Assembly: GCF_000179635.2 (NCBI RefSeq)
Contig: NC_014833.1
Coordinates: 540,001 to 572,000 of the forward strand
Direction: 5' to 3'
DNA length: 32,000 bases
Source of the DNA: Ruminococcus albus 7 = DSM 20455
GTDB lineage: Bacteria > Bacillota > Clostridia > Oscillospirales > Ruminococcaceae
Shown here: positions 1-31,807 of the stretch, piece after piece
How the letters are laid out: every line of letters starts with the position of its first letter
Numbering within the stretch: the first letter of the stretch is position 1
The notes under the pieces: generated by a model
Told to the model about the DNA's origin: nothing
Seen by the model: the letters and a program-made list of their open reading frames with translations, nothing else
The model's database searches: none
Position numbers and translations under genes: made by a program

Positions 1-147
1 CCATTCCATGGGATTATAGATATTTGAGATCACTGCTACATCAATATCCATTTCCCTTGTTTTTTCTATTATACCTTTTATGACCTCTCGCTGCTCGGTA
101 TCTGCTGCTGCGGCAGCGATAACGCCAAAGAGTTTCCTTTTTTTCAT
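1..147 (-). CDS. 5' end (first 49 codons) of a second PBP/AraC-type hybrid regulator, paralog of 3964..6139. The gene continues past the window start.
   Basis: The reverse-strand ATG is the complement of 145-147, with a GGAGG RBS about 10 nt upstream. My translation is MKKRKLFGVIAAAAADTEQREVIKGIIEKTREMDIDVAVISNIYNPMEW. It aligns with the repaired N-terminus of the 3964 gene (ADTEQRE, GII, VISNIYNP). Confidence 0.6.
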   Translation of the reverse strand, partial: MKKRKLFGVIAAAAADTEQREVIKGIIEKTREMDIDVAVISNIYNPMEW

Positions 148-545: not shown

Positions 546-1577
546 ATGAACAATGATAATGAGAATTTGAAAAATGCCATGATAATAAAGAATCTGACCT
601 TGTTTTTCGGCGGCTTCCTGCTGTTTACCGATGTATTTTTTCTCGCGGTCGGGATAGTATACGATATGCCGCTTATACGTTATCTGATTTATGTTAAGCT
701 CGTTATTAATACTACTAATATATATCTGATACTAAAAAAGCATTATCTTGTATCAACGGTGATAATTTACGTTGTAATAATGGCGATGATGGTAGTAGGC
801 ATTATAAGTATGGGTACGCGGCCTGCTTTTCAGCTATATGCGCTGGGTATGCTTATATGTGTCAGCTACAACGGCTATCTGCATAACCGTATACTGAAAA
901 AGGAACTCCCTTTCATGTTAATGATGGGGATCCACGTTTTGCTTTATACAGGTATGCTTCTGTATGCCAGGTTCAGAGAACCGCTGTACACTTATCCGCA
1001 GAGTGCAGTCGATATTCTTGTGATATTCAACTCAGTGGCAACGTTCAGTATTGTTATACTTTATGCTTTTCTTTTCCACAATGTTGCGATCCACTCTGAG
1101 GAAAAGCTGGAGAAAATGGCACTTATGGATAAACTGACAGGTCTTTACAACCGACATTATCTTTTAGCATTTCTTGATCACACAGGACCGAGAAACCCTG
1201 AAGACCGCTGGATAGCGATGCTTGATATTGATGATTTCAAAAAGATAAATGACTCCTATGGTCACAACTGCGGTGATTTTATCCTGCATGAGATCGCTGC
1301 GATGATACGTGATGTATGCAAGAATTGTATAGTATGCCGCTGGGGCGGTGAGGAATTCATTATACTTTCAAATATAAACGAGTGCAGCACCGAAGTACTT
1401 GAAACGCTGAGAAAGAATATTGAGAACAGGGAGTTTATATTTGAAGGCAATACCATACACGCTACGGTAACCATAGGCGAATGTCGGTATGAGACCGGGC
1501 AGTCCAATGATAAATATGGATATCCGTGGCTGACGAAAAGCTTTATGAAGGCAAACACAGCGGCAAGAACCGTGTAG
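546..1577 (+). CDS. Membrane-bound diguanylate cyclase (multi-TM N-terminus plus GGDEF domain). The 3' end appears frameshifted.
   Basis: GAGGTG RBS before the ATG. The N-terminal ~170 aa are hydrophobic. GGDEF hallmarks are LTGLYNRHYL, DIDDFKKINDSYGH and RWGGEEFIIL. The canonical C-terminus ADEKLYEGKHSGKNRVVR lies in another frame and ends at 1585. Confidence 0.9.
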   Translation: MNNDNENLKNAMIIKNLTLFFGGFLLFTDVFFLAVGIVYDMPLIRYLIYVKLVINTTNIYLILKKHYLVSTVIIYVVIMAMMVVGIISMGTRPAFQLYALGMLICVSYNGYLHNRILKKELPFMLMMGIHVLLYTGMLLYARFREPLYTYPQSAVDILVIFNSVATFSIVILYAFLFHNVAIHSEEKLEKMALMDKLTGLYNRHYLLAFLDHTGPRNPEDRWIAMLDIDDFKKINDSYGHNCGDFILHEIAAMIRDVCKNCIVCRWGGEEFIILSNINECSTEVLETLRKNIENREFIFEGNTIHATVTIGECRYETGQSNDKYGYPWLTKSFMKANTAARTV

Positions 1578-1658: not shown

Positions 1659-3554
1659 TTACTTGATAGTAACCGTTACAGCATTCTTGATAGCATTAGT
1701 GGTATCCCACTTTCCGTTGATTCTTGCAGCAATAGCTACTTTGTAGGTCATGCCGGGAGTCAGGTTCTTGGGAGTTACATAGCTGTTTGTAGTAATGTTG
1801 GAAGTCTGTACTCTCCATTTACCGGCAAGATATACAGCTATGCCGTACTTGTCAGCACCCTTGACCTTATCCCAGACGAACTGTACCTGGTGATACTGCT
1901 GGCTGTAATTAGCCTTGATGTTTGTAGGATAGGTGATTTCCTGAGGAATGATGATATGATCGCTGCTGCCGCCGTTTGTGTAAAGATCAACAGGCAGTTC
2001 ATCGAGAGTGATGCAGTAATCGCTCTGGTAGATCTTCTTCAGCTCATCAAAGTCCTGATAAGCAGCACCCAGGAAAGCTGTGCCGCCGTCTTCACCGCCG
2101 TCATACCAGGGGCAGAAGTACAGCCAGCCTGCATCCTCAACGGTCAGGTTATCCAGTGCGGGAATAGTGTCGTTCTCAGCCATAGCGACCATCTTCTTGC
2201 CGTTGGTCAGCGCGTACAGTGCATCGAACTTTGCAGGTATAGCCAGCAGGTTAGGACCGCCTGACTTTCCGTCGCCTCTGTTGTACTCAACATTGTACTT
2301 ATCGTATGCTACGATATCTACATAATCATCGCCGGGATACCATGTAGCGGAATTAGTGTAGTCATAGCTGTTGAATTCCCATATCAGGTTGTGCAGACCG
2401 TACTCCTCGGTCAGTGTGGTATAGAGCAGCTTCCATACCTTCTTATAGGTATCGGCTCCTCTGTCGCCCCACCAGAACCATGCAGTACCGTCGGAATAGT
2501 TGCCCTCGTTGCCCTGTGCCTCGTGCAGAGGTCTCCAGATAACAGGTACGCCTGCATCCTGAAGTCTTTTCAGCTGCTCTGCGAGGTCTTTTATTGCCAG
2601 CTGGAAGTACTCATATTCCTTTGTGCCCTTGATGACAACGTTTCTTGTATCAAATGACTTTGAACCGTCACTGCTCTGATAGTTCTTATATGTGCATTCC
2701 TTCCAGTCGAGCTTTTCACCGAGAGTATAGTTTTCAAAATCCTTGGGGACATTTATATGCCATGATGCAGTAACTATACCGCCGCGCTTGGTAGCCCACT
2801 CTATGCAGCGCTCGGTGGTGCCGTCATCCCAGCCGTACAGCGGATTGTAGTTCATGAAGTCTACGCCTCTGATAGCGGGTACCTTGCCTGTGAGATCTTT
2901 GAGATACTCGTTCTCCCACTCATAGTTTCCGCCGTGACCGCCGCCGTATATCTCCTGCTGGCCTGCGATGATGTGGCTGCCGTAAACGCTCTTGAGGTAA
3001 GCCATCAGCGACTTTGCCTCGGGTGTAGCATTCTTGTCGGTCAGAGTGCCGGTTGCCAGTGTATAATCATGCTTGGGGGTAGCGCTGACGGTGACTGTGT
3101 CTATAGCCATGTAGCCGTACTCGCTTATGAACTCGATTGTGTTAACGCCCTTGTTCAGACGGAAGCTGCCGAAGCTGAAATCTGTCCACTCCTCGGAATA
3201 AGGCATATTCTTCATGCGCTTGATGCCGTTTACAGAGATGGACTCCTGTCTGCCGTTCTTATCGAGCACCTGTGCACATCTTGCAGTAATGGTGTACATA
3301 CCGTCCTCGGGAACAGTCACAGTAAATGATGCAGAATTGCCTGTAAGGTAGAAGAAGCCCTTGCCTGAAGAATTCTTAGGTGAAGGACCGTAATTCTGTG
3401 TCCAGAGCTCAGCGCCTTTCATATCCTCTGCCTCAATGGTGTAGGGGAAGGAATCAGCGGTCGCGGCCTGAACGGGCATGGAAGCTGCATAAGATGAAGC
3501 TGCCACTGCAAGTGCGGCAAATGCCGCCATTGTTTTCTTGAATTTGTTTTTCAT
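1659..3554 (-). CDS. Secreted GH26 beta-mannanase with an N-terminal CBM6/35-like module and a C-terminal ~85-aa Fn3-like module
   Basis: AGGAGG RBS and a signal peptide (MKNKFKKTMAAFAALAVAASSYA). The CBM-like block is YTIEAEDMKG...IDTVTV. GH26 motifs are WRPLHEAQGN, WFWWG and LIWEFNSY. The C-terminal module is QQYHQVQFVWDKVKGADKYGIAVYLAGKWRVQ. Confidence 0.9.
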   Translation of the reverse strand: MKNKFKKTMAAFAALAVAASSYAASMPVQAATADSFPYTIEAEDMKGAELWTQNYGPSPKNSSGKGFFYLTGNSASFTVTVPEDGMYTITARCAQVLDKNGRQESISVNGIKRMKNMPYSEEWTDFSFGSFRLNKGVNTIEFISEYGYMAIDTVTVSATPKHDYTLATGTLTDKNATPEAKSLMAYLKSVYGSHIIAGQQEIYGGGHGGNYEWENEYLKDLTGKVPAIRGVDFMNYNPLYGWDDGTTERCIEWATKRGGIVTASWHINVPKDFENYTLGEKLDWKECTYKNYQSSDGSKSFDTRNVVIKGTKEYEYFQLAIKDLAEQLKRLQDAGVPVIWRPLHEAQGNEGNYSDGTAWFWWGDRGADTYKKVWKLLYTTLTEEYGLHNLIWEFNSYDYTNSATWYPGDDYVDIVAYDKYNVEYNRGDGKSGGPNLLAIPAKFDALYALTNGKKMVAMAENDTIPALDNLTVEDAGWLYFCPWYDGGEDGGTAFLGAAYQDFDELKKIYQSDYCITLDELPVDLYTNGGSSDHIIIPQEITYPTNIKANYSQQYHQVQFVWDKVKGADKYGIAVYLAGKWRVQTSNITTNSYVTPKNLTPGMTYKVAIAARINGKWDTTNAIKNAVTVTIK

Positions 3555-3900: not shown

Positions 3901-3929
3901 TTTACTTTGAGAAAACAATGTGCTATAAT
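3901..3929 (+). promoter_or_regulatory. Promoter of the hybrid regulator gene (extended -10)
   Basis: TTTACT (3901-3906), 17 nt ending in TGC, TATAAT (3924-3929). Confidence 0.55.
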
Positions 3930-3963: not shown

Positions 3964-6139
3964 ATGAAAAGGCAGATCATAGGGGGTTGTATCAACAAGA
4001 ACAGCCGATACCGAGCAGCGGGAATTGTTGCGGGGGATAATTCCTGCTGCGTGGAAGCGTAATACGGATGTAGTAGTGATATCCAATATATATAATCCCG
4101 AGTATGACGATGAGCAGCTTGCGGCTGAAAATGATATCTACCGACTTATAGAGTCGCCGGATCTTTGCGGTATAATACTTGTTACCGAAGCATTCATCAA
4201 TCCCACCCACCGCAGGCAGATATCTCAGCTAATGAATTACAGGAGCGATATACCGCAGATAGCTGTGGGCTCATATTTTGAAGGCTTTGAACTCGAACAC
4301 TGCATACCGCTCAATACAGCTGATTCGGATGATATAGCCGACCTCACAGAGCATCTGATAACGGTACACGGCTTTACTGAGATAGACCTGCTGACGGGTT
4401 TTGAGAGCTATTCGGTATCGCATCTGCGTATAGACGGTTACCGCAGTGCATTGGAAAAACATGGTATACCATTTGACGAAGATCGTGTAATATTCGGGGA
4501 TTTCTGGATGCCATCGGGTGAGAAACTGGCAAAAGCTTATATCTCGGGAGAAAGACCTATGCCGCAGGCGGTGATATGTGCCAATGATTATATGGCATAC
4601 GGGATCCTTGATGTGTTTGCCGAACAGGGGATATCCGTGCCCGGTGACATCACTGTAGTCGGTTATGAATTTGTTCGTGAACGGCATATGCATACTCCTG
4701 TTCTCACGACTTTTCAGCGAAGCCGCGAAGCGCTTGGAAGGATAGCTGCAGAGATGCTGCTTAACAAAGTAAGTTCAGGCGAGTTCGGGGTCCTGGTACC
4801 GCCGCGGGGCAAAGTGATATGCGGCGATAGCTGTACCTGCGGCATAAGACCTGCCGACCTCAACGCCGAACTCAGTGCTGCAAGGACAAAAGCTTTCTAT
4901 GAATTCCTGCACCTTTATAATCAGTTGGAGCAAAGGCTGACAGAAGCACATTCCATGCGTGACTTCTGTGGGAAATTCGTGGGCTCGGAATATCTGCTGC
5001 GCAATATCAGCGGTGCGGAGCTCTGCCTTTACCGCAACTGGCACAATGGAGCCGCCGATGACAGTATGATGAACTGCTACACATTATATAATGAATCACT
5101 TAACGGTCAGAGCAGAAACATCTCACGGCTGGAGCTTTCTGCGCTGACAGAGCGCAGTGGAGCGCCTGCGGTATATTATTGTTCACCGCTGTTTTTCGGT
5201 GACCGTCCTATGGGTTTCGTTGTGACCAGATACGAAATCCCTGAAACATATGATCATATATTCCGCAGCTGGATGAAATCAGTATCAAATGCGCTGGAGA
5301 TACTGCGCATGAAAAACGATATAAAATACCTCATGGAGTGCTGTAATATATCCGAATATCAGGACACTGTTACAGGATTGCTCAATCGTAAGGGATTTTC
5401 CCATGAGCTGCATATACTTATACGCAAGGCTGTGAAACGTCAGCCTGTGTTCTGCCTGCTGCTGCAGACTGCCATAGACCGTGACAACCTGTCACTAAAG
5501 AACAAGACCAAAGAGATAGCCATACAACAGGAGATTTCTGCAGCTTTGCAGGTCGTCGCACCATCATTCATCTGTGCAAGACTTGAACCGAATATCTACG
5601 CTGTTGCAGGGCTATATACCGATGAGGACATGGAACTGCTCCTGCGGGAGCGTGTTACCGCACTGGTACTCAACAACGAGAAGTATATTGACCTTTTCGG
5701 CATGGATTCGTTCTGTATCTCGGCTGTATGTACCGAGTACAGCAGCTCAACCGAGCTTATGAATATAGCCGAGAAAGAACTTATGGTACAGGCAGATATT
5801 TTACGTGATAGTCACCTTAATACTCATTACCGTCAGCTTATATCAGCACGGAACAGGCTGTATTCAGGCAGGGAAGCCCCTTTTACGGTTGAAGCAATCT
5901 GCAGGCAGTATCTTATATCGGCAGGTCATTTCCGCAAGATCTATAAGGAAACATTTGGTATTGCCTATCATCAGGATATCATAAGGATGCGTATGATGAA
6001 AATGATATGGCTGCTGATATCCACCGACCTGGATATTTCTGTAATTGCAGAGCGCTGCGGTTATGATGACTATGGCTATTGTCTGCGCCTTTTCAGACAA
6101 TTCACAGGTCATACGCCGAATAAATACCGAAAACTATAG
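3964..6139 (+). CDS. Cytoplasmic hybrid transcriptional regulator: LacI-type sugar-binding (PBP) fold, GAF-like region, degenerate GGDEF, AraC/XylS HTH. There is an apparent frameshift at codon 7-8.
   Basis: ATG 3964 has an AAGGGGGTGGG RBS but stops at 4060-4062. The long frame, listed from 4025, is open back to 3983. Removing one G from the G5 run (3982-3986) gives MKRQIIGVVSTRTADTEQRELLRGII, which matches the paralog at 1..147. Motifs are VICANDYMAYGILDVFAEQGISVPGDITVVGYE, DTVTGLLNRKGF, RLEPNIY in place of GGDEF, and AERCGYDDYGYCLRLFRQFTGHTPNKYR. Confidence 0.8.
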
Positions 6140-6177
6140 CGATGAATGTTTTCTCCATAAAATGCGTATTTTCTTCA

Positions 6178-6206
6178 TTGAAATACTTTGTACTATTGGT
6201 TATAAT
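6178..6206 (+). promoter_or_regulatory. Promoter of the GH98-like gene
   Basis: TTGAAA (6178-6183), 17 nt, TATAAT (6201-6206). Confidence 0.55.
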
Positions 6207-6302
6207 ATAAACACAAAGTAAAACGTTTAACAATTTAAAACCTGTGCATCATTTGGTGTGATAGATCGCATAGGTAAAACATTACGCAAAGGAGGAAATT
6301 GT

Positions 6303-9300
6303 ATGAAATTCAAAAAATTGTGTGCCCTGATCTTAGCCGGCACGCTTGTCGCGGGTACGATGATCGCACCGGCAGGAGGTATAGTTCCTGCAGCAATAAG
6401 ACCTATAGGCATAACAGCAGAGGCTGCTTCGTATATGCGCCGCCCCTGTGACCCCGAGCATCCCATGCTCATAGTACATATAGACACATGGAATTATGCC
6501 GACCCCGCAAAGATCATAGCAACGATCCCCGAGAGCATAAGACCATACTGTGTGTTCAATATCTCCCTTTCCATAAACTGGAGCAATACCGAACACAAGT
6601 GGCTGATGGTGCAGGACGGCTACGAGTGCGCAAAGTCATGGCTGAAGACCTGTTCGGATATGGGCGTATGGTGCATGGTGCAGCCTGCATCGGGCGGACA
6701 GTGTCATTTTCCTGACTATGACAGCAACTACAATATCGTAAACTCTCCCAACAAGAACAGGTACGTACAGCACGCTGATGATGATTACGAGAACACGATA
6801 TATGCCGAGTTCTTCCGTGATTATCCCAGCTTTATCGGTTTCAACTATTCCGAACAGTTCTGGGGGTTTGCTTCACAGGATCATCCCTGCACTTTCCAGC
6901 AGCGCTATCAGCATTTCGCACATCTGCTGAAACTCTGCAACAAGTACGGCGGATATCTGAACATCAACTTCTGTGCTAACCGCTGGTCGGCAGGACTTAA
7001 TCCCATAGCCATGCTCAAGACTAACAGCCAGTGGCGTGATGCCTGCGAGAAGTACGGTCAGAACCTGATGCTGGAAGAAAAGTATACACAGGAAAGTATG
7101 ATAGAGGACGTTGAATCCCAGATACTGGGTCTGTATCTTTCGGGCTACTGCGGATGCTACGGTGTGCGCTACGATGATACGGGCTGGACAGACCTAGGTT
7201 CCGACGGTTCATCCCTTTCCACCAAGAATCAGTACCGTCAGATCACGGGTCTGCCTATCCATGCAGAGAGGATGATAATGAACGGTGCTACCGTCATAGA
7301 CGGACCCGAGCTTGTATGGAACGATGACTTCGGTGAAACATGGGGCGGCGTAAAGGACAGTGAAGGTTATTCCTGCCGCAACTGGTTCACCAAAGACCAG
7401 TATGTTAATTCCACACTGAATTTCTTTGAAAAGATGGTAGACGGTACTTACCGTATACCCACCCGTCAGGAAGTCATCGACCGCACAAAGTATATCATCA
7501 TACAGGACGTAAGTTCGGGCGGCGACAATACAAAGTACAGCACATACCAGACGCTGTTCGAGGGTCTTTACCGTATGCCGAACGACGGCAATCTCTGGGA
7601 TAACAAGAACCTCTATAAATCAACGGGACGTTACCCCACTATACCCACCACCTACGGTCTCAGGGACAGTACTGCTAAGTCATTCAAGTATCAGCTGAAA
7701 CAGTCGCAGCTCGGTTCCCGCTGGAGCAGTATCTCTGCCAAGCAGAACGAGTTCAACAGGGAATTCCCCTCCGAGTACGTGGGTACCTGCTATGCGGGTC
7801 ACTATAATAACACATGGGTGACTTACAACAACGATAAGCTCAACGGAAATCAGGGCGTGCTTATTGATCTGCAGTACAACACTTGTTCGACCTTCGATGC
7901 TAACTTCAATGCATACGGTAATGCGATAATAAACGAGTACAGCGACCATATCGACATATATGCTAATAATTTTGATAACAAGGCTCAGACTACTCTATCT
8001 ACCGATACCTTCAAGGTCAACGGCTGCAACTCCAGACCTACCTATACTGCTAAGGACACCGGCCGCAACCAGACAAGATCCCAGATATCCGAGAGTTATT
8101 CCAACGGTACCTATACCCTTACCGTAAAGCACAACGGTCCTGTTGATATACGTATCAACTGCACAGGCAATAACACAGGCAGAAAGACCAATTACAACAA
8201 GGCATCTGTACAGCCCATAACCAAGCCCGCATTCTACACAGGCACCCGCCAGTACGAGGGTGAGTTCTTTGATGTCAAGAATGTTGAGGGCTACGTTACG
8301 AATGCCTGCAACAGCGGCGTTACAGGCATACAGGGCCATGGCTTCCTGAAATACGGCAAGAACTACAATGCTGCTGTCAAGGATACCGTACATACCAATA
8401 AGGCAGGTCAGTTTACCATGAAGCTGAGATATTCTTCTCAGTCGGACATAGATCAGGTTGATCTCTATGTGAACGGCACCAAGCAGGAGACCATGCACCT
8501 TTCAAACACCTACGGCTACTCCAACTGGAAGACATATGAAAAGACGATCAACCTGAAAGCAGGGGATAACAAGATCGAGTTCAAGTCAAATTCGGCTCTT
8601 CCCTCCTCGCTGTACATCGATAACTTTACAGTAGACGGCGATTTTGGTGACGGCAGCGGAACTATCATCGTAAATGAACCCGATCCCATTCAGGGCAGGA
8701 TCGTAAGAGACCTGAAAGTTGCTGATGCCGAAAACGCAGATGATTGGTCGATAGTATATGATACCACAGTGGGTTCAAGATTCTATGGCGACAGAGATAT
8801 CACTGTAAGCAGTATCCCCTCTTATCTGAAAAACAGGGAAACTATCCGCACCGCCTGCGATTCCAAGCTGTATTCGGGTGACGAAGCTGCCTTTACTGTA
8901 AATCAGAACGCGACAGTATATATCGCAGTTGACGATCGTGTAAATCAGGGACTCAGCTGGCTGGGCAGCTGGACCAAGACCTCCGATACCATGACTACAT
9001 CCAATGATGTAGTGCTTACTTTGTTCCACAAAGACTTTTCGGCAGGCAGCAGTGTTACCCTTGGTACTAACGGTGCGCAGGGTCTGTCTGCAAACTATAT
9101 CGTCTTTGTGCTCCCTCAGGGAACATACCAGAGCGAAACACATGAGTATCCAAAAGTCACAAATATACAGTACAATACACAGTATCACCAGTTCAAGGTA
9201 AACTGGTCATCCGTCAAGGGCGCATCACAGTACGGTATAGCAGTTAAACTTGCGGGCAGGTGGAAGGTGCAGGCTTACACCGATGCTTACACCACTACAT

Positions 9301-9419
9301 TCACATCGCCTAAGCTGAAGGCAGGCAGTTCCTATCAGATGGTTATCTGCGCCAAAGTGAACGGCAATTGGGATATTACTGATATCAATTCCAGATCATT
9401 CTATGTTACCGTGAAGTGA
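6303..9419 (+). CDS. Secreted multimodular glycoside hydrolase: GH98-like catalytic region (tentative), CBM6/35-like module, unassigned beta-sandwich-like module, C-terminal Fn3-like module
   Basis: I prefer ATG 6303 (AAAGGAGG RBS, signal peptide MKFKKLCALILAGTLVAG) over the ORF-track start at 6258. The N-terminal region has PEHPMLIVHIDTWNYADPAKII and IGFNYSEQFWGF, which I recall as GH98-like. The CBM block is RQYEGEFFDV...LYIDNFTV. The C-terminal module is TQYHQFKVNWSSVKGASQYGIAVKLAGRWKVQ. Confidence 0.8.
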   Translation: MKFKKLCALILAGTLVAGTMIAPAGGIVPAAIRPIGITAEAASYMRRPCDPEHPMLIVHIDTWNYADPAKIIATIPESIRPYCVFNISLSINWSNTEHKWLMVQDGYECAKSWLKTCSDMGVWCMVQPASGGQCHFPDYDSNYNIVNSPNKNRYVQHADDDYENTIYAEFFRDYPSFIGFNYSEQFWGFASQDHPCTFQQRYQHFAHLLKLCNKYGGYLNINFCANRWSAGLNPIAMLKTNSQWRDACEKYGQNLMLEEKYTQESMIEDVESQILGLYLSGYCGCYGVRYDDTGWTDLGSDGSSLSTKNQYRQITGLPIHAERMIMNGATVIDGPELVWNDDFGETWGGVKDSEGYSCRNWFTKDQYVNSTLNFFEKMVDGTYRIPTRQEVIDRTKYIIIQDVSSGGDNTKYSTYQTLFEGLYRMPNDGNLWDNKNLYKSTGRYPTIPTTYGLRDSTAKSFKYQLKQSQLGSRWSSISAKQNEFNREFPSEYVGTCYAGHYNNTWVTYNNDKLNGNQGVLIDLQYNTCSTFDANFNAYGNAIINEYSDHIDIYANNFDNKAQTTLSTDTFKVNGCNSRPTYTAKDTGRNQTRSQISESYSNGTYTLTVKHNGPVDIRINCTGNNTGRKTNYNKASVQPITKPAFYTGTRQYEGEFFDVKNVEGYVTNACNSGVTGIQGHGFLKYGKNYNAAVKDTVHTNKAGQFTMKLRYSSQSDIDQVDLYVNGTKQETMHLSNTYGYSNWKTYEKTINLKAGDNKIEFKSNSALPSSLYIDNFTVDGDFGDGSGTIIVNEPDPIQGRIVRDLKVADAENADDWSIVYDTTVGSRFYGDRDITVSSIPSYLKNRETIRTACDSKLYSGDEAAFTVNQNATVYIAVDDRVNQGLSWLGSWTKTSDTMTTSNDVVLTLFHKDFSAGSSVTLGTNGAQGLSANYIVFVLPQGTYQSETHEYPKVTNIQYNTQYHQFKVNWSSVKGASQYGIAVKLAGRWKVQAYTDAYTTTFTSPKLKAGSSYQMVICAKVNGNWDITDINSRSFYVTVK

Positions 9420-9572: not shown

Positions 9573-12500
9573 TTATTTCACATAGTTGCTGAGTCCCGAG
9601 ATGTTTGCGGACTTTATAGCATTTGCTATCAGCTGTGCGATAACGGGAGCACCTGTCTCATTGAAGTGAGTAGTATCAATGTGGAGCTTAGCTGCATTAT
9701 CGTAGCCAATGGAATTATAGTAGTTCACCATTGCGCCGTTAACGTCAACGTAAGGAACAGAATATTTTGCGGCAAGCTTCTTGCAGGCATCGGCATATTC
9801 TGTATAAGAACCTGTGAAACGTCCGTTTTTGTAAGCCTTCAGACCGAGAGTGCAGGACATGAGTATGGGAGTTGCACCCTTTGCCTTGGTGTCCTTTATG
9901 AATGATGTCATATACCACTCGTATGATCCTGAAGACGGGTTATCTACGTTGCCGCAGAGAGGTGCATATCTGTCTGCGTAGCTCTTTCCTGCATCGTTTA
10001 TAGCGAACTGTATAGCTACGAAGTCACCTTTCTTGAGGTTCTGTACTATTGTGGCAAATCTGCCTTCGTCATAGAATTTTTTAGAGCTTCTTCCTGCCAT
10101 GGCATGATTGTATATGCTCACGTTGCTTGAGAAGTATTTTGGCAGCTCGTAACCCCAGCCCTGGATAGGACCGCCCTGCTGTGACTGTTTGTTAGCGTTG
10201 TAGTACATACAGGTAGAATCTCCTGCAAGATAGAGCGCAGGTTTGGTGTTGTCGATATACTGTTCCTGAGCATTGGGATCATAAAGCTCAGCAACTGGTT
10301 CATCGGTGAGTGTGATCGTCAGGTAGTCGAAGTTGGGACCGCCGTCTGAGCCTGCAGACTCAAATTTTATAGTGTTATCACCTGCGTTCAGGGGCAGTAC
10401 AAGTCCGAGAGCATCCCATGTTGTCCATGCGCCTGTTGATGCAAATGTCTGTATCCAGTAGCTGCTTGTATTGCCGTTGACAAATACCTTGGTATCTCTT
10501 GAGGATGATGAACCGTTGGAAAAGCGTACATAAGCCATGTACTTGCCGCTGGTAGGAGCTGTTACCTTAAATGTAAGGCTGCTGCCGACAGCATTGTTCA
10601 GGTTTATATAACCTGTATTTGAGGACTTGCCTATATCGGTGGATGTCTTTGTGAATCCGCTGTTAGTTTCCTCTGCCCATGCATCGTCCCATGTCTGGTC
10701 AACTGCGAAATAGTATCCATCCCACGGATCAGTGGAAACTGATACATTTTCATAAACCGGAGCGGGGAAGCTACGCATACCCAGTGCGTACTGCTGGATA
10801 TAAAGAACATCGTTATCATTGATGCTTCCGTTGCCGTCAACATCAGCGTTCTTCATGCCCTGCTTACACAGAGGATATCTGTATGAGTTGTTAAGGTACT
10901 GTTTAATAGTTACTGCATCAGCCATATCCACCTTTCCGTCAGCGTTTGCGTCGCCGGGATAGCGTGTAAGCGTATTTGTATACTCTGGCTCGGGCTCAGG
11001 TTCAGGCTCGGGCTCGGGATCATTTGGCTGTACTTCTTCGAGTATCCACTTCTGGCAGTTATGACCGTTGACTTCCCACTGCTGGATGTTGGCGCCTTCG
11101 TATGTCAGTGCGCTGCCGACTTCTATCGCGCCTTTGTCGCCTGAGCAGCGTGATACCATGGTGTAGCTGCCGTCACCGTTCTCGAAGAACCTGAACCACT
11201 GTGCACCGTAGTTCTGGTTTGTGTTGAGGGCGATATTGGCACCGTTGGCTGAACTGCCGTTTGCAACATCGAGAAGGTATGTGCTGCCGCCGCCAAGGTA
11301 TGACCATATCTCATAGTAATTATAGCCCTTGTGCTTCAGTCTCCATGTGTTCCAGTCTCCGACCTGGGCACCGCTCCACTGCTGGACATTTGCACCGACA
11401 GCAGCTTCGCCGTTCTTAACTTCGAGGTACAGACCGCTGTTAACGTTCTTGAAACGGTACATCTTGGAGGTATCCATCTGTACGGGCTCTTTTGTTTCAA
11501 ATACAAGACCCGACATCAGCTCAGCGAGCTTCTTTGCACCCTCCAGACTCTGGTGGAGATCGTCACCGCTGGCATAGTAAGGTGTCATAGCATCGTAACC
11601 GCCGATGCTGAATCCGAAATCCTGCCATGCATTGAAAAGGTCAACGACTCTTACATTTTCCTCAGAAGCGACAGAGTCAAGCTCTCCGCCGAACCAGCGT
11701 CCGCTGAGCTTCGGGTTTCTGTTGTAGTCGGCGTGACGTCCCTGCTGTTTTACAAGGATAACGTCCATTCCCTTGGCTTTAGCCTTTTGAGTCATAGTAG
11801 ATACTGTGCTGTGATACTCATCCTTATTGGAATAGTTGGTATCATTTATACCTATGGAGATTATGTAGATATCTCCTGATTTGCCGTAAGTTTCAATGGG
11901 AGTGAACTGTCCGCCGTCATAGAACCCCTTGGCGTACTGTCCGCTGGTAGCCATATTCCTTACTTCAAAACCGTGCTGTGATGCGTATGTTCCGAAATAC
12001 TGTCCCCAGCCGTGTGCCTGGGTAGAACTTCTGTTATAGTAGTTGGCAACTGTTGAGTCACCGCATATCCATACTGTCTTAGGCATTACGCCCGTGGTGT
12101 TTATCTGCGTTATCTCAACAGCAGATATGGAACGCTGACCGTTACTTATGCCTGTAACAGCTTGTATATTAAGCTGTCCGTCTGTAACAGGAAGTTTTAC
12201 GGTCTCGGAAGCGTTGAGCCCTGTGAGGTTCATCATCTGGAACATACCTTCCATTTTGATACAGCACCTAGGTGCATTACCCACAGTGACCTTTACCTCG
12301 TAAAGTCCTTTAGGAAGATCAACGTTGAATGTGTTTGAACCGCTGTCTGACTTGAACTCGACTGCGTCGCTGCCTGCGCCGTTTCCGCCTGCGGAAACAT
12401 TACCGACATTTCCTGTCTGTGCGAAGCCGTAGCCTCTCCAGGAAGCATATTCGTCAGATGCCGATACACCTGTGTACCCCGAGGCTGTACCGCCCGTTCC

Positions 12501-12635
12501 GAAGTCGAATTTCCAGTTTGCAGTCGCGGCTTTCGCAGTAAGCACACCGTTTGCATTCGGTACACCAATACCCGAAAGCATCAGAAGCGACAAAGCTGCT
12601 GAGGTCAGACCGCTGACCAGCTTTTTAAATCTCAT
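9573..12635 (-). CDS. Cellulosomal bifunctional SGNH/GDSL (CE12-like) acetyl esterase: beta-sandwich, esterase 1, CBM13 ricin-type lectin, PE linker, type I dockerin, CBM35-like module, esterase 2
   Basis: AAAGGAGG RBS and a signal peptide. SGNH blocks are VWICGDSTVANYY, GINDTNY and DDLHQS in esterase 1, and LYLAGDSTCMYY, AINDAG and DTTHFNETGA in esterase 2. QxW-type repeats are VQQWSG, AQWFRF and IQQWEV. The linker is PEPEPEPEPEPE. The dockerin reads GDANADGKVDMADAVTIKQYL...NADVDGNGSINDNDVLYIQQYALG. Confidence 0.9.
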   Translation of the reverse strand: MRFKKLVSGLTSAALSLLMLSGIGVPNANGVLTAKAATANWKFDFGTGGTASGYTGVSASDEYASWRGYGFAQTGNVGNVSAGGNGAGSDAVEFKSDSGSNTFNVDLPKGLYEVKVTVGNAPRCCIKMEGMFQMMNLTGLNASETVKLPVTDGQLNIQAVTGISNGQRSISAVEITQINTTGVMPKTVWICGDSTVANYYNRSSTQAHGWGQYFGTYASQHGFEVRNMATSGQYAKGFYDGGQFTPIETYGKSGDIYIISIGINDTNYSNKDEYHSTVSTMTQKAKAKGMDVILVKQQGRHADYNRNPKLSGRWFGGELDSVASEENVRVVDLFNAWQDFGFSIGGYDAMTPYYASGDDLHQSLEGAKKLAELMSGLVFETKEPVQMDTSKMYRFKNVNSGLYLEVKNGEAAVGANVQQWSGAQVGDWNTWRLKHKGYNYYEIWSYLGGGSTYLLDVANGSSANGANIALNTNQNYGAQWFRFFENGDGSYTMVSRCSGDKGAIEVGSALTYEGANIQQWEVNGHNCQKWILEEVQPNDPEPEPEPEPEPEYTNTLTRYPGDANADGKVDMADAVTIKQYLNNSYRYPLCKQGMKNADVDGNGSINDNDVLYIQQYALGMRSFPAPVYENVSVSTDPWDGYYFAVDQTWDDAWAEETNSGFTKTSTDIGKSSNTGYINLNNAVGSSLTFKVTAPTSGKYMAYVRFSNGSSSSRDTKVFVNGNTSSYWIQTFASTGAWTTWDALGLVLPLNAGDNTIKFESAGSDGGPNFDYLTITLTDEPVAELYDPNAQEQYIDNTKPALYLAGDSTCMYYNANKQSQQGGPIQGWGYELPKYFSSNVSIYNHAMAGRSSKKFYDEGRFATIVQNLKKGDFVAIQFAINDAGKSYADRYAPLCGNVDNPSSGSYEWYMTSFIKDTKAKGATPILMSCTLGLKAYKNGRFTGSYTEYADACKKLAAKYSVPYVDVNGAMVNYYNSIGYDNAAKLHIDTTHFNETGAPVIAQLIANAIKSANISGLSNYVK
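10779..10958 (-). other. Type I dockerin module (two Ca-binding F-hand repeats), internal to the esterase
   Basis: DANADGKVDMADAV and DVDGNGSINDNDVL duplicated loops, read from the reverse-strand translation. Boundaries are approximate. Confidence 0.8.
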
Positions 12636-15845: not shown

Positions 15846-16070
15846 TAATCACGATGCTTTGCTATTTGAACGAAGGGTCATTCACAATATCCGATTTACA
15901 GCTGTTTTACAAAAACGAGCACAGTTAACATTTTAACATAAGTCGGTAAATTTGTCAACCGCTGCAAAGCCTTGCATAAGTCTGTGGATAAACTTGCGGA
16001 ATTTTCTGATCTATCATTGCAAAGGACAGCAGCAAAACACATCAAACTGATCGGTAAAGGAGAGGTCATA

Positions 16071-16649
16071 ATGAATATGGTCATGATAGAAGAAAAGGAA
16101 GAACTACTTTCGGTAAAACTGGCTGAAAGATTGAAGAAAGACGGGTTTTTCGTTGTTGCACATGGTACTGTACTGGAAATAATGAACTACATTTTTGAGG
16201 TAAAGGGTACAGGCGGTCAGCCGAGGCACAACGGACTCAGATATGAGCTTCCTGCAGAGTACGGTGAAGATACGCTGTACAGCTATATCAAGATGACCGT
16301 TTCCACACCGCTCGAAAGGAAAGTGGAGGATATGACAGTAGATACGGTATTATCACTGGGTATATCAAGGGCGCTGAGGGGATACTCATATCTTGCAGCT
16401 TCGATAACTATGTGTGTAGCCTGCCCCGATAAGCTGTATTCTCTGAACAAGGATGTTTACCCCGAGATAGCGAGAAAATACAATGTTGATGTATCCTGCA
16501 TCGAACGAAGCATCCGCCATGCTATATGCAAGGCTTATTCGGAGGATCCCGAGCCTATGAAAAAACTGTTCAGGCGGCCTATCAGACGTCCGAAATGCCA
16601 GGAACTGATCGCCGAGTGTGCCGATATCATAAGGCGGATATTCTATTGA
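16071..16649 (+). CDS. Orphan Spo0A C-terminal (DNA-binding) domain protein with a degenerate receiver-like N-terminus
   Basis: ATG 16071 follows an AAAGGAGAGG RBS. The C-terminus LGISRALRGYSYLAASITMCVACPDKLYSLNKDVYPEIARKYNVDVSCIERSIRHAICKAY matches the Spo0A_C pattern (GY.YL...I, LYP.IA.KY, ERAIRHAI). The N-terminus lacks the receiver acidic pocket. Confidence 0.75.
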   Translation: MNMVMIEEKEELLSVKLAERLKKDGFFVVAHGTVLEIMNYIFEVKGTGGQPRHNGLRYELPAEYGEDTLYSYIKMTVSTPLERKVEDMTVDTVLSLGISRALRGYSYLAASITMCVACPDKLYSLNKDVYPEIARKYNVDVSCIERSIRHAICKAYSEDPEPMKKLFRRPIRRPKCQELIAECADIIRRIFY

Positions 16650-16780: not shown

Positions 16781-18012
16781 CCACGGAAATCAATTTTCAA
16801 AAAATCAGGTTTCAAAAGTTACATTTATATTTCAGGTTGTACAAATTACTGGACAGAGCACCTGGAAAATGATATAATATAGGCATGAATAATGGAATAA
16901 CCGAGTATTTTGAAGATATTGAATTATATGAGGAATATGACGGCTATTTTTGCAGTATCCCCGATATCATTACAATAGCAATTCTTGGAAGTATCTGTGG
17001 ACTTAGAAACATTCATCAGATTCATCAATGGGCGACAAATGACAGAGTAAGCGAATTCTTAAAGGAGAAATTCGGAATCGATCATGTCCCTTGCTATTAT
17101 TGGATATTGAGCCTGCTGAAATATGTCAAGCCCGAATCGCTCAACCGCTGTTTTGCGGATTGGGTCTATTCATTCATGCCCGAAAAGTCCAAAAGTATGA
17201 CGATCTCTCTTGACGGGAAAACTGTTTGTTCGACACTTAAAATGAGTAAGATCGAAAGTCCTCTGCACATCATCAGCGCACAGGTATGCGAACTTGGATT
17301 GACCCTGGCACAACGCAGCACGGACGATAAAAGCAACGAGATACCTGCGGTGCAGGAGCTTCTGAAAGAACCGAAAATAAAGGGTAATATAGTTGTTGCG
17401 GATGCACTGAACTGTCAGAAAGAAACTGCTGAGATTATCGTAAAACAAAAGGCAGATTATCTGCTTTGCGTTAAGGATAATCACCCAAATTTGAAGAAAG
17501 ATATCGAGGATTATGTGCAGGACAGTTCTCTCAGAGACACTATGCAAACAGTTTCAAGAACGGAGAAAAACCGTGGCAGAGTTGAAACAAGGACAGCGTA
17601 TGTAACAACAGATATCAACTGGCTGGAACAGAAAAAAGAGTGGAAAAATCTGAAGTGCATAGGAGCCATTCATACTGAGTTTTCAACGAAAAAAGGCACT
17701 TCGAGCGAATGGCACTATTACCTTTCAAGCCGCGAAATGACAGCGGAACAGCTCCTTCATCATGCAAGAATGGAATGGTCGGTTGAGTCAATGCACTGGC
17801 TGCTTGATGTTCATTTTGAAGAAGATTGGTGCAGAGTCGAAAACAAAGACGTTCAGCAATGCCTGAATATGTTCAGAAAAGCTGCGATAAATTTAATCAA
17901 GAACTTTAAAAATCGGAACAATTCTAAAGCCGCCATATCCAAACTTATGTTTGAATGTCTTATGGAGCCGCAGATGATTTCGAGGGTGATTTTTGAAAAT
18001 TGATTTCCGTGG
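16781..18012 (+). mobile_element. Intact ISAs1-family insertion sequence (1232 bp)
   Basis: Perfect 18-bp terminal inverted repeats: ccacggaaatcaattttc (16781-16798) and gaaaattgatttccgtgg (17995-18012). They are flanked by the 7-bp direct repeat cagcacg (16774-16780 and 18013-18019). There is a single transposase ORF. Confidence 0.9.
16885..18003 (+). CDS. ISAs1-family (H-repeat type, IS4-superfamily DDE) transposase
   Basis: The N-terminal DDE_Tnp_1_assoc-like segment is FCSIPDIITIAILGSICGLRNIHQIHQWA. The core is VVADALNCQKETAEIIVKQKADYLLCVKDNHPNL and WSVESMHWLLDVHFEEDWCRV. The stop codon lies inside the right inverted repeat. Confidence 0.9.
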   Translation: MNNGITEYFEDIELYEEYDGYFCSIPDIITIAILGSICGLRNIHQIHQWATNDRVSEFLKEKFGIDHVPCYYWILSLLKYVKPESLNRCFADWVYSFMPEKSKSMTISLDGKTVCSTLKMSKIESPLHIISAQVCELGLTLAQRSTDDKSNEIPAVQELLKEPKIKGNIVVADALNCQKETAEIIVKQKADYLLCVKDNHPNLKKDIEDYVQDSSLRDTMQTVSRTEKNRGRVETRTAYVTTDINWLEQKKEWKNLKCIGAIHTEFSTKKGTSSEWHYYLSSREMTAEQLLHHARMEWSVESMHWLLDVHFEEDWCRVENKDVQQCLNMFRKAAINLIKNFKNRNNSKAAISKLMFECLMEPQMISRVIFEN

Positions 18013-25978: not shown

Positions 25979-28900
25979 ATGAGAAAAAGTACTCATAGAC
26001 CGCAGTACAGGCTGCTTTCGGGATTTATATCGCTGATATGCCTGTTTACGGCGGTTCTGGGCAGTGTGCCCTCAGTGAGTGCGGCATCAGCCGAATTGCC
26101 CGAAAATATCCAGCTTTTCTTTAACAAAGGTGAGGATGAAGTGGATGGCGTGGTCATTTCAAATGACGGAAAGACCGCGGATTATACCATTGAGGGCGAT
26201 AAGCAGCAGGTCAATGTTACGCTTAGACTCAGCCTGAACAAGACCTATGAAGAAGGACGTTTGCAGATAGAGGTGCCTTATGATGCCTTTACCGATCGAC
26301 GCGGCGATCCTTTCCATCTGTCAGCAAAGGCTGATTTTCTTAATCAGCTTGCTTCGGATTCTTCACTTTTGAGGGTCAAGGAGGACAGATCAAGTACTGA
26401 CGGTGTAATAGTTCTTGAGAATATCAAGGCTTCTTCACCGCATATCGACCTTAATCTTCACTATACCATCTATGCAAATCAGGTTGTCGATAACAGTGTA
26501 CAGGATTACGGTATAAAGATATTCGATAATGAAACACAGGAATTACGTTCGCCTGAAAAGATCACAGCGACATTCCGCACCCATGTAAGGGATGCGTCTG
26601 TTCTGAAGTATACCGAGGACGAAGGCGTTCAGCAGGGCTGCTACTATGCCTGGGATGATATCATCGAAACCAGATATCATCTTTCAGAGTATGGTATAGG
26701 CGAGGCTGAGTTCAATGAGATGCTGAAGGAGTATGACTTCATCGGCTACCGCCTTAAAACTTCCGTAGAGAAGAATCAGCCCGTTGTTACCTATATTGAC
26801 GATCAGCCGGGCGGCGGTGAAGTCGTAGCAGTATCAAAGAAATTCAACTATGAGGATACTACTCCTCTTGTAAAGGTAACTGAGGGTGAGTATGCAGGTC
26901 AGTGGATGTTTGAAGGCGCAGCATCGGAGTATCTGGTGCTGGTAAAGTATCCCAAGACAGTTGCTGAAAAGCCTGATGCTGAGGGCAAACTGCCCAGACT
27001 GAGAAATGATGTCACTGTGACCTATGCAGGTGTTGACGGTGACAGAGAGGATATTACCGAAGACAGCGACTATATCACATCAGTATGGCAGACAATGGGC
27101 GCTGTTTACAGCGGTGATATATGGAGCGTTGTAAAGAAAGCAGGTCCCGATCCCACAGGTGCTGTGGATCTTCTGAGGGCAGGCAGCGAAGCTGCGCTCT
27201 CCTATGAGATCGAGGGTATCGGTCATACATATAAGTACGGTGCCAAGGATAACTTCACCTATGAGGACGGTCCCTACTGGATGGAAGTGGTTGATGATGC
27301 ACTTTATGTAAACGGTCTTGGCGAGGACGGCAGAGAACTTGCTCGTCTGCAGCCTGATGATTTCTACTTCAAGACTTTCACCATGACCGTTGAGCATAAG
27401 GTAGTAGAAGCGGTAACACTCAATCTTGATGTAAAGAAATCCCACTATCTTCCTATAAATAAGAGAAAGCCTGTTGAGGTATATGTCATGACTGCCGATA
27501 AGCCGGGTGTATGGCAGGAAGACTGGGTGTTATCTCTCCCTGCAGGCAATAGCGATTATGTCTATGCTGATGCAGATGGCAATACCACATTCGAGTTCAA
27601 GCACGACAAGGTATACAGGATCAAGTTTGTATACCGCGATGCTAACGGTGATATCAGCCTGAGATCGAATGTTACAGGTGTTATCCGCGGCAAGGGACCT
27701 GTTGTCAAGCAGGTGCTTGATAATATGGAAAATAACCACATCAGCGATTTCCAGGTGTTCAACTGGGATGGTCAGATGGGTTATAATGCTGCAGGTGTAT
27801 GGGAGAACCCCACCGACGGCAGAACAATATATACTCCCAATGACAGTGTCAAGAAAGATCTGCTGGCTCTTGATGAGGAGCTCTATGCAGGACATTCCGA
27901 TGAAGAGGGAAATGTAAAGGTAACTACCAGACTTTCCGCTAAAAATGTGCTCACAAGCATTGATCCCTTCTGTGGACTTTCCAAGAAGTCAAACGGTGTT
28001 GAGCAGAAGAACAAGAAGGTATATACTTCTTATTATCTCGCAGCTGTAACAGGCAAAGCCCTGACAGAGAAAGATCTCAGACAGCTGGTAGAGCTAGGCG
28101 CTATAAAGGGCGATAAGGAGGTCGTATTCCACGAGCTGCTGCCTATGGGTATGAGTGTTGAAGAAGTTACCCCCATGACAGAGACCCTTTATCTTTCCGA
28201 CAGACCCAAGGAGTATCACTGGGATACACTGTGGGCGCGTAACAGCGGTCATGTAAAACCGATAAATACCGAGGTGCCCGATGTAAGTATCGAAACTATC
28301 GACAACTACAAGGGAACTCACAGACAGTATGCAAAGATCACTGTAAAGTACAAGGATCTTCCTGTGGTAAGACTTGGCGAACAGAGCGATATCTGCTACT
28401 CTCTCGGTTCTGTGCTGTATCTGAAGGCAGTAGCTGACTATGAGGAGCTGAGAAGCACTACTCTTGATAACTATGCCGAGGCACAGTTCATAGGCAAAGA
28501 CGGCAAGCCTGTAGAGCTTGCAGGTATCATGGCAAAGTCGGATGACGGCACTGTTTTTGAAACACTGAAGGACAGGGACGGCAAGCAGGCGCTTGAAGAT
28601 ATCGACGGCGATAATGATACAAAGAAAACTACAGTTGTAGCTGATATGGCGGTGGATGAAGTAACTATGTATTACTCTGCCACCACCCTTAAAAAGAAGA
28701 TCAAGGCAGATGACTACGATCTTGACTTCAAGGATTTCACCCAGACCTATGCAGGTCATAACTACACCTACAGACTCCAGTTCTTCTCCAACGAGGGTTT
28801 TGCAAAGAATGTGGTGATATATGATTCCATTGAGGAAGCTTACAAGGAACCCGAATTTGATGGTATGCCTTACTGGAAGGGTACGCTCTACGGAGTGGAT

Positions 28901-31733: not shown

Positions 31734-31807
<74 letters not shown>

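Follow-up and report, generated by a model that had tools for sequence, protein, structure and literature searches.

How do cellulolytic ruminococci choose which fibre-degrading enzymes to make? Little is known on this point, and a 32,000-nucleotide stretch of the Ruminococcus albus 7 genome (positions 540,001 to 572,000 of contig NC_014833.1, here called the window, to which all coordinates refer) poses the question in a concrete form. At 3964-6139, between genes for enzymes of glycoside hydrolase (GH) families 26 and 98, lies a regulator gene whose product joins a sugar-binding fold, a GAF-like domain, a GGDEF domain devoid of its signature motif and a DNA-binding domain of the AraC type. 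What does this protein sense, and which gene does it serve? We hold it rather probable that this is an AraC-type regulator, responsive to sugar, which controls the adjacent hemicellulase gene and in which the GAF-like and dead GGDEF domains would form an inherited module for dimerisation and relay. As its direct target we consider GH98 likely, and not GH26, the divergent gene. No regulator with this combination of periplasmic-binding-protein (PBP) fold, GAF, dead GGDEF and AraC domains was found described in the literature searched.

The four-part order had been proposed in an earlier note made from the DNA letters alone. It is confirmed by Pfam for the first and last domains, by sequence profiles for the GGDEF domain and by a structural model for the GAF-like one. 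The parts are as follows.

3964..6139, plus strand: regulator gene, 724 residues after removal of one base in the G-run at 3982; frameshifted as sequenced.
3964..4810, plus strand: periplasmic-binding-protein fold of the LacI/RbsR type, residues 1-282, without the LacI helix-turn-helix (HTH), from Pfam, Foldseek and an alignment with LacI.
4832..4840, plus strand: invariant C290-x-C292 in the linker between sensor and GAF-like domain, from the family alignment.
4850..5344, plus strand: GAF-like domain, residues 296-460, with long flanking helices (296-317 and 433-460), from an AlphaFold segment model and structure matches.
5024-5026, plus strand: invariant C354, from the family alignment.
5357..5812, plus strand: degenerate GGDEF domain, residues 465-616, with the DxLTG hinge kept (from 5363) and the active site lost.
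5579..5599, plus strand: RLEPNIY in place of RxGG[DE]EF, from profile alignments.
5888..6136, plus strand: DNA-binding domain of the AraC/XylS type with two HTH motifs, residues 642-724, from the HTH_18 match.

The N-terminal domain matches Peripla_BP_3 (E 3e-22, 79.8 bits) and Peripla_BP_1 (E 3e-17, 63.5 bits) over residues 76-273. Pfam detects no LacI HTH, the protein begins at the first strand of the sensor, and the alignments with RbsR and CcpA start at residues 61 and 63 of these proteins, so that the HTH region of the LacI family is missing here. The ligand-binding core of the LacI/GalR family is present, while its HTH and hinge helix are not, in agreement with the earlier assignment to a LacI/RbsB-type fold lacking the HTH. 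A full-length AlphaFold model was computed with a 118-sequence alignment from P0001, an intact 724-residue protein of other assemblies that is 99% identical to the restored regulator. Its mean pLDDT (predicted local distance difference test) is 90.7. The N-terminal domain of the model resembles the ligand-binding cores of the LacI ancestor, RbsR and CcpA (Foldseek E about 1e-15, target template-modelling (TM) score 0.7-0.79), and such LacI-family cores were the only matches to the full-length model. Residues R155, N207 and E235 align with R197, N246 and D274 of LacI (BLASTP, E 8e-17), which we take to be contacts to inducer hydroxyl groups, and they are invariant or at least 90% conserved across the regulator family. 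A sugar pocket in the N-terminal domain is likely because these equivalents of the LacI inducer contacts are conserved.

At the other end, HTH_18 is matched with an E of 4.5e-14 (52.9 bits against a cut-off of 33.6, profile positions 2-79 of 80) and, together with HTH_AraC (40.9 bits against 26.6), covers residues 646-723. An AraC-domain match is found in all 54 family members scanned. There is no transmembrane segment, the highest 19-residue Kyte-Doolittle mean being 1.42. The C-terminal AraC/XylS HTH and the cytoplasmic location assumed in the earlier note thus both stand, and the regulator is a cytoplasmic one-component transcription factor.

The GGDEF domain needs more care. It opens with DTVTGLLNRKGF at 5363, the DxLTG hinge that marks the domain start; this opening and RLEPNIY lie where the earlier note had placed them. 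In the regulator itself the domain scores 16 bits, below the Pfam threshold of 23.8, so that the profile searches proposed earlier gave supra-threshold matches for Peripla_BP_1/3 and HTH_18/AraC but not for GGDEF, nor any match for GAF. Pfam does recognise GGDEF in 33 of 54 family members (best E 8.9e-7). When a family profile of residues 276-640 was compared with the PDB sequences, all 36 matches were GGDEF domains (best E 1.2e-4), and hhalign against the intact GGDEF domain encoded next door gave a probability of 93% and an E of 2.7e-7, with RLEPNIY placed on RWGGEEF. Both alignments thus set RLEPNIY on RxGGEEF. On the strength of sequence profiles and secondary-structure order, the GGDEF fold and homology are established.

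What appears to be gone is the enzyme. None of the 118 family members retains the GG of GG[DE]EF, the two positions being occupied by S, N or E and then by D or E. In 114 of the 118, K, R or Q stands where the metal-binding Asp belongs (Q501 in the regulator), and for the regulator itself hhalign shows L and S in place of the guanine-binding Asn and Asp. As judged from these residues, catalysis is lost in all 118 members, as the altered motif had suggested.

It had also been suggested that the dead domain may act as a ligand sensor. The protein could then be a cyclic di-GMP (c-di-GMP) or GTP receptor in the style of PelD, PopA or Caulobacter PdeA, integrating a second messenger with sugar. A GAF domain followed by a degenerate GGDEF is the arrangement of PelD, and the messenger might come from a neighbour:

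546-1577, plus strand: gene for a membrane GGDEF protein that has several hydrophobic helices and keeps RWGGEEF and DIDDFKKINDSYGH intact.

This gene, which lies between a paralog of the regulator and the GH26 gene, is kept in six near-identical contigs. However, the domain itself lends the idea no support. The RxxD I-site, five residues upstream of the GGDEF position, is missing (APSF here), and no conserved Arg is seen there in the 118 family members, which carry CNHD, SKNE, SRNE and others. Sensing of c-di-GMP or GTP is unlikely because the canonical nucleotide-binding sites are missing, those for guanine and metal included. The genomic surroundings point the same way. The GGDEF neighbour is missing from all other contexts examined, no GGDEF-domain neighbour occurs in the upstream or downstream tables of the family described below (EAL is found in 2 of 43 downstream neighbours), and Rfam detects no riboswitch in the window, for c-di-GMP or otherwise, its sole match being a tRNA at 31734-31807 on the minus strand. 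We regard a nucleotide receptor as quite improbable.

Where, then, did a transcription factor acquire a dead cyclase? The regulator family is large and mostly confined to Ruminococcus/Oscillospiraceae. A profile of its middle region, searched against 1.84 billion representative proteins, retrieved 83 clusters at E <= 1e-30 and 493 at E <= 1e-10. The best 150 matches comprise 58 proteins of regulator size (690-780 residues), 42 of 600-665 residues, 6 of about 1265 residues, and 44 fragments or others. Among the 42 proteins of 600-665 residues, 35 contain [GAS]G[DE]EF. Six of them were sampled, and five have the PBP fold, the GAF-like region and a full-length canonical GGDEF domain (Pfam E 1e-26 to 1e-32) with motifs such as ARTGGDEF and INDTYGH; the sixth, P0151, has no Pfam GGDEF match. 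The proteins of about 1265 residues continue into EAL, a GGDEF-EAL form. In contrast, a GG[DE]EF-type motif at the right position is found in none of 48 further representatives of regulator size.

The likeness between the regulator and these sisters, which include P0160, P0168, P0181 and P0203 (about 630-660 residues, PBP-CxC-GAF-GGDEF) and P0215 (about 1270 residues, PBP-GAF-GGDEF-EAL), extends over the whole sensory part. They have the same start, M-KRK-I-[AG]V, the S/T-C-x-C linker, LCL..NW, F-P-L-F-F..GY and the DxLTG hinge, and the mid-region profile matches them with E values of 1e-47 to 1e-24. The S/T-C-x-C near residue 285 is common to the regulators and to every full-length sister-family representative listed. 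Unlike the regulator, the sisters have no DNA-binding domain: their chain either closes with a GGDEF domain that is intact (ARTGGDEF, ARIGGDEF; Pfam E about 1e-30) or runs on into EAL. They are presumably sugar-regulated c-di-GMP enzymes; we know of no characterised PBP-CxC-GAF-GGDEF protein, and none was found in the literature searched. Since the sister families with the same sensor module carry intact GGDEF or GGDEF-EAL, the regulator is most likely an exapted cyclase. Its family would have arisen from cytoplasmic cyclases that sensed sugar, through the gain of an AraC domain and the loss of catalysis. This would be an apparently clean case of pseudoenzyme exaptation, with sensor and relay kept, catalysis lost and a DNA-binding domain added, and the surviving sisters, active cyclases and phosphodiesterases, allow a comparison.

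The longest sisters have some features of their own. P0215, P0216, P0217, P0240, P0248 and P0259 (about 1265 residues) consist of PBP, CxC, GAF-like, a degenerate GGDEF (ARISNDEF) and EAL. Their C-terminal 390 residues or so have no Pfam match at E <= 0.001 and look by eye repeat-rich and rich in Gly, Asn and Ile. The cluster holds 2412 member sequences.

The segment between sensor and GGDEF domain is assigned at the level of the fold. Residues 285-465, modelled alone with AlphaFold (pLDDT 84), have GAF domains as all 50 of their best PDB structure matches (E 1.6e-3 to 0.09, TM score 0.24-0.57), among them PDE6, PDE2A, Lcd1, phytochromes and NifA-type regulators. Pfam GAF does not match the regulator, GAF_2 is found in 2 of 54 family members (best E 0.0074), and no GAF entry appears among the PDB matches of the family profile. 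The earlier claim of a GAF-like stretch thus holds for the fold and not for the Pfam family; support is modest, and "GAF-like fold" is the name that the model justifies. The structure prediction that had been called for has in this way recovered both the LacI-family core of the sensor and the GAF fold of this segment.

Could this middle part be the true sensor, the PBP fold being a mere scaffold? A small metabolite, a metal or the redox state might be perceived by the GAF-like domain or by a triad of cysteines, C290, C292 and C354, which are invariant in all 118 family members, the S/T-C-x-C being shared, as said, with the sisters. GAF domains commonly bind small molecules. However, the GAF-like domain is only about 10% identical to ligand-binding GAFs, and the equivalents of the LacI inducer contacts are conserved in the PBP fold, so that we rate this alternative as very improbable. 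An intermediate version, a coincidence detector, is improbable too. Here sugar plus a second signal would gate DNA binding, the latter entering through the GAF-like and dead GGDEF domains by a non-canonical route (a nucleotide, or pairing with an active GGDEF partner, for example the membrane cyclase next door) or through Cys290, Cys292 and Cys354 (metal or redox). If true, an exapted cyclase would couple the expression of fibre-degrading enzymes in ruminococci to second-messenger or redox state.

Which genes do such regulators accompany? A metagenome scan gave 80 loci, reduced to 48 non-redundant ones with 42 upstream and 43 downstream neighbours, and 97 genes at least three genes away from regulator homologs served as controls. 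Dockerin_1 is encoded in 19 of the 42 upstream neighbours as against 2 of the 97 controls (Fisher p = 5e-10). Other Pfam families in the upstream neighbours are CBM_4_9 (12), Esterase (11), CBM_6 (7), GH30C (7), GH98 (6), GH10 (3), GH43 (3), GH26 (1) and GH5 (1). The downstream neighbours are less enriched (Dockerin_1 in 4 of 43). The upstream gene is divergent from the regulator homolog in 31 of 42 cases, and all five distant homologs checked singly are divergent from a gene for a carbohydrate-active enzyme (CAZyme). The upstream neighbours are therefore strongly enriched in secreted CAZymes, with enzyme types that are mostly xylan-directed. Such a count had been proposed in the earlier note, and neither unsupported domains nor a lack of CAZyme enrichment, its two stated grounds for abandoning the idea, was found. 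The family provides a testable candidate set of hundreds of members, typically beside a secreted, mostly xylan-type hemicellulase gene, and one of these members comes with a defined promoter element.

In a subgroup of homologs that are about 41% identical to the regulator (for example L023, L027 and L036), the divergent upstream gene encodes a protein of 169-256 residues. Some of these homologs apparently come from other metagenome projects.

That promoter element lies between the regulator and GH98 genes, in a locus arranged as had been described: the regulator is divergent from GH26 and co-directional with GH98.

1659..3554, minus strand: gene for GH26 with a carbohydrate-binding module (CBM) of family 35, divergent from the regulator gene.
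3754-3726, minus strand: GH26 promoter, a perfect consensus (TTGACA-17-TATAAT) reading towards GH26, with no copy of the candidate repeat nearby.
6143..6178, plus strand: candidate operator of two direct 16-bp repeats in a 20-bp register, TGAATGTTTTCTCCAT (6143-6158) and TGCGTATTTTCTTCAT (6163-6178).
6178..6206, plus strand: GH98 promoter, TTGAAA-17-TATAAT, whose -35 overlaps the last base of repeat 2.
6303..9419, plus strand: gene for GH98 with CBM6/35, co-directional with the regulator gene and the probable regulated target.

Linkage between GH98 and the regulator is seen in L009, L011, L012, L013, L014 and L015. The arrangement varies from locus to locus. In L012 (regulator 82% identical) a restriction-modification system stands in place of GH26 and GH98 is still 3' of the regulator; in L013 (65% identical) GH98 comes before the regulator; in L014 (62% identical) the next gene is a GH98 gene, 68% identical. 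Two regulator homologs of 40% identity are divergent from GH98 genes. The expectation of a switch for polysaccharide-degradation genes is thus supported by the enrichment and by GH98, the likely target, and probably does not extend to GH26 as a direct target.

The candidate operator follows directly on the stop codon of the regulator gene and abuts the GH98 -35. The tandem repeat is kept in L001-L006, L012, L013, L014 and L015, and beyond the closest relatives it stays with the regulator-GH98 pair at five loci, which represent four more orthologous contexts and three arrangements of the genes. The repeat block and the -10 are conserved 5' of GH98 at every orthologous locus, whereas the 17-nucleotide promoter spacer and the leader diverge. 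In L013 the block has moved along with GH98, and copies of it, single and inverted, point towards the divergent GH5/esterase gene and towards the regulator gene. A pattern of the repeat with 22 specified bases has three matches in 596 Gb of species-representative genomes, all three at regulator-GH98 pairs. The repeat is found neither 5' of GH26 or of the regulator gene nor elsewhere in the intergenic DNA of the window. The GH98 -35 is weak in two orthologs (TTGCGG and TTGTTG). Tandem direct repeats that touch a weak -35 are the classic layout of an AraC-type activator site. We propose the tandem repeat at 6143-6178 as the candidate operator of the regulator.

These elements suggest a path from sugar to promoter. 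The N-terminal domain would bind an imported sugar or oligosaccharide from hemicellulose breakdown, a xylan-derived ligand being likeliest because of the neighbouring enzyme types. Closure of the sensor would be transmitted through the CxC linker and the long helices around the GAF-like domain to the dead GGDEF domain, and the retained DxLTG hinge would fit such a relay. In the ancestral cyclase the relay would place two GGDEF domains for catalysis. It would now reposition the AraC domains, two per dimer, on the pair of repeats, with the dead GGDEF domain acting as a pseudoenzyme for dimerisation and transmission, and RNA polymerase would be recruited to the GH98 promoter in a class II-like activation.

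Several points weigh against this proposal. The relay is deduced from how the domains are ordered and from hinge residues that are conserved, rather than from a model of the dimer. In the literature searched we found nothing on ligands, DNA binding or expression, and neither the transcriptome paper on R. albus 7 nor its supplement mentions the genes of the regulator locus. A tandem-repeat search of 17 divergent intergenic regions for a family-wide operator gave results mostly within shuffled expectation, the GCRYATWT tandem pattern matched the HUN007-type locus only (the repeat motif is not general across the family), and no second regulon member was found. Some homologs have a small non-CAZyme upstream neighbour, including extracytoplasmic function (ECF) sigma factors in 4 of 42 cases. 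The window allele is frameshifted (see below), so the mechanism may not operate in R. albus 7 itself. Finally, the GH98 promoter of the window is near-consensus, with 11 of 12 matches, and would suit repression too. The regulator would then be a repressor bound to repeats that overlap the -35 of an intrinsically strong promoter, and sugar would release it. The overlap of repeat 2 with the -35 fits this model, as does the kinship of the sensor with the LacI family, whose members are mostly repressors. However, activation is the typical role of AraC-family proteins whose tandem direct repeats abut the -35, and in L013 and L014 the -35 retains only the TTG from the conserved block, suggesting dependence on an activator. 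Repression is, in our judgement, fairly unlikely.

Two further observations concern these promoter regions. In loci of the Ruminococcus sp. HUN007 type (L007 at 7805-7867 and L058 from 5797 onward; regulator 38% identical), the two copies of a tandem repeat, GCACATTTTGGTA / GCACATTTCAGTA, are set in a 21-bp register and adjoin a TTGACC-17-TATAAT promoter directed into the regulator gene. Its layout matches that of the R. albus GH98 site, and the core GCRYATTT is common to both. In the window, a near-palindrome, GTAAAACGTTTAAC, lies at 6218-6231 between the GH98 -10 and the ribosome-binding site (RBS). It is centred on CG and resembles an operator of the LacI family or a cre site; L012 retains it and L015 almost does, whereas L013 and L014 do not. 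Going by its letters, it may provide a second control of GH98, for example catabolite control.

It must be noted that the gene as sequenced in R. albus 7 does not encode the full protein. Three more features are needed here.

3901..3929, plus strand: likely regulator promoter, TTTACT-17-TGnTATAAT, a consensus match only.
3979..3986, plus strand: frameshift site, ATAGGGGGTT in the window and ATAGGGGTC in relatives, one extra base at codon 7/8.
4025..6139, plus strand: open reading frame (ORF) as sequenced, TTG start, 704 residues, in the next frame relative to the ATG at 3964.

The ATG at 3964 is preceded by a strong RBS, AAGGGGGTGG. The earlier note had treated 3964-6139 as one gene frame; this did not survive, the span being 2176 nucleotides, which is no multiple of 3, and the frame from the ATG terminating after 32 codons. 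The note had bridged the frameshift silently. Deletion of one base from the G-run at 3982 yields a 724-residue protein that begins with MKRQIIGVVSTRTADTEQRE and matches at its N-terminus both P0001 and the start of the paralog, MKKRKLFGVIAAAAADTEQRE (147..1, minus strand). Six metagenome contigs that share 98.5% nucleotide identity with the window over 12.1 kb have ATAGGGGTCGTATC where the window has ATAGGGGGTTGTATC, that is, one extra base at 3982 in the latter, and the gene of these relatives codes for an unbroken protein of 724 residues. An error of sequencing or assembly was considered as the cause and is ruled out: the frameshifted GGGGGTT sequence is identical in five assemblies from independent Sequence Read Archive (SRA) runs of R. 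albus 7. The frameshift is therefore a genuine allele of this strain.

An annotation of the gene exists, though it is generic and the protein is truncated in it. The 704-residue ORF is identical to ADU21038.1 ("transcriptional regulator, AraC family", Ruminococcus albus 7), and the RefSeq version has 687 residues and is named "substrate-binding domain-containing protein". Compared with the AlphaFold model, the sensor domain of the 704-residue ORF is without its first beta-strand and a portion of helix 1. The +1 frameshift removes at least 20 sensor residues, and R. albus 7 probably makes either a protein with a defective sensor or none at all.

Has the gene simply begun to decay? The R. albus 7 copy could be a pseudogene, with GH98 constitutive, silent or otherwise controlled, for example through the LacI/cre-like palindrome at 6218-6231, and we give this nearly an even chance. 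Apart from the loss of strand 1, the neighbouring membrane GGDEF gene is frameshifted as well. Relative to the six near-identical contigs, the window has two extra bases, AT at 1514-1515, which swap the C-terminus ...DKWISVADEKLYEGKHSGKNRVVR for an unrelated tail and destroy the C-terminal ADEKLYEGKHSGKNRV helix. These two changes are the only indels in the 12.1 kb compared with the six wild relatives. However, the frame stays open over the other 704 codons, with 99% identity to the intact alleles; decay, if any, must be recent, and a restart at the TTG at 4025 or at a GTG could still yield a dimerising, DNA-binding protein. In addition, this explanation bears on the strain only and not on the function of the family. 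R. albus 7 is widely used in laboratories, and the frameshifted allele matters when the strain serves as a model of hemicellulase regulation.

How does the regulator compare with known systems? E. coli XylR (PDB 4FE4/4FE7), which controls pentose- and xylan-related genes, is likewise a cytoplasmic one-component protein with a LacI/GalR-type PBP fold, no LacI HTH and a C-terminal AraC domain. However, XylR (392 residues) joins these domains directly, whereas about 350 residues of GAF-like and dead GGDEF domains separate them in the regulator, whose sensor is closer to RbsR, PurR, CcpA and LacI than to XylR. XylR matches the regulator in sequence through the AraC domain only (E 5e-7, residues 645-723). 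A specific kinship is therefore rejected, and the regulator is a fusion independent of XylR. In PelD of Pseudomonas aeruginosa, too, a GAF domain precedes a catalytically dead GGDEF used for signalling rather than synthesis, but PelD is membrane-anchored, binds c-di-GMP through an RxxD I-site that the regulator lacks, and has no DNA-binding output. The hybrid two-component systems of Bacteroides (BT1754) are functional analogues: they combine a PBP-like glycan or sugar sensor, enzyme-derived modules and an AraC output, and their genes adjoin the polysaccharide-degradation genes that they control. They span the membrane, sense in the periplasm and use an active kinase and a receiver, whereas the regulator is cytoplasmic with a dead cyclase in its middle. 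As in the regulator, the GAF domain of Leptospira Lcd1 (GAF-GGDEF, PDB 5W10), among the best structure matches to residues 285-465 (TM score 0.54), is directly 5' of GGDEF, with relay by flanking helices. Unlike the regulator, Lcd1 is an active cyclase with a cAMP-binding GAF, without PBP sensor or DNA-binding domain.

Two more genes of the locus deserve mention.

1..147, minus strand: 5' end of the paralog, of the same architecture; 719 residues in L001, 37% identical.
9573-12635, minus strand: dockerin-bearing multi-esterase gene, encoding a secreted protein of 1020 residues.

The presence of a paralog with the same N-terminus, starting at 147 on the minus strand, had been noticed before and proved correct. 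Between it and the membrane GGDEF gene there is an 18-nucleotide direct repeat, TGAAAATGTGAGCAAAGT (412-429) / TGAAAATGTGAATCAAGT (469-486), 57 bp apart, the second copy of which overlaps a TTGAAA-17-TATAAT promoter of the membrane GGDEF gene. The paralog might control this cyclase gene. On the far side of GH98, the multi-esterase protein contains an agarase/YxiM-like galactose-binding domain, two GDSL esterase domains, ricin-type lectin repeats, CBM35 and a dockerin. Further along the window are a gene with a Spo0A C-terminal domain (15972-16649), followed by a DDE transposase gene (16885-18003), and an ORF of 1873 residues at 25979-31600.

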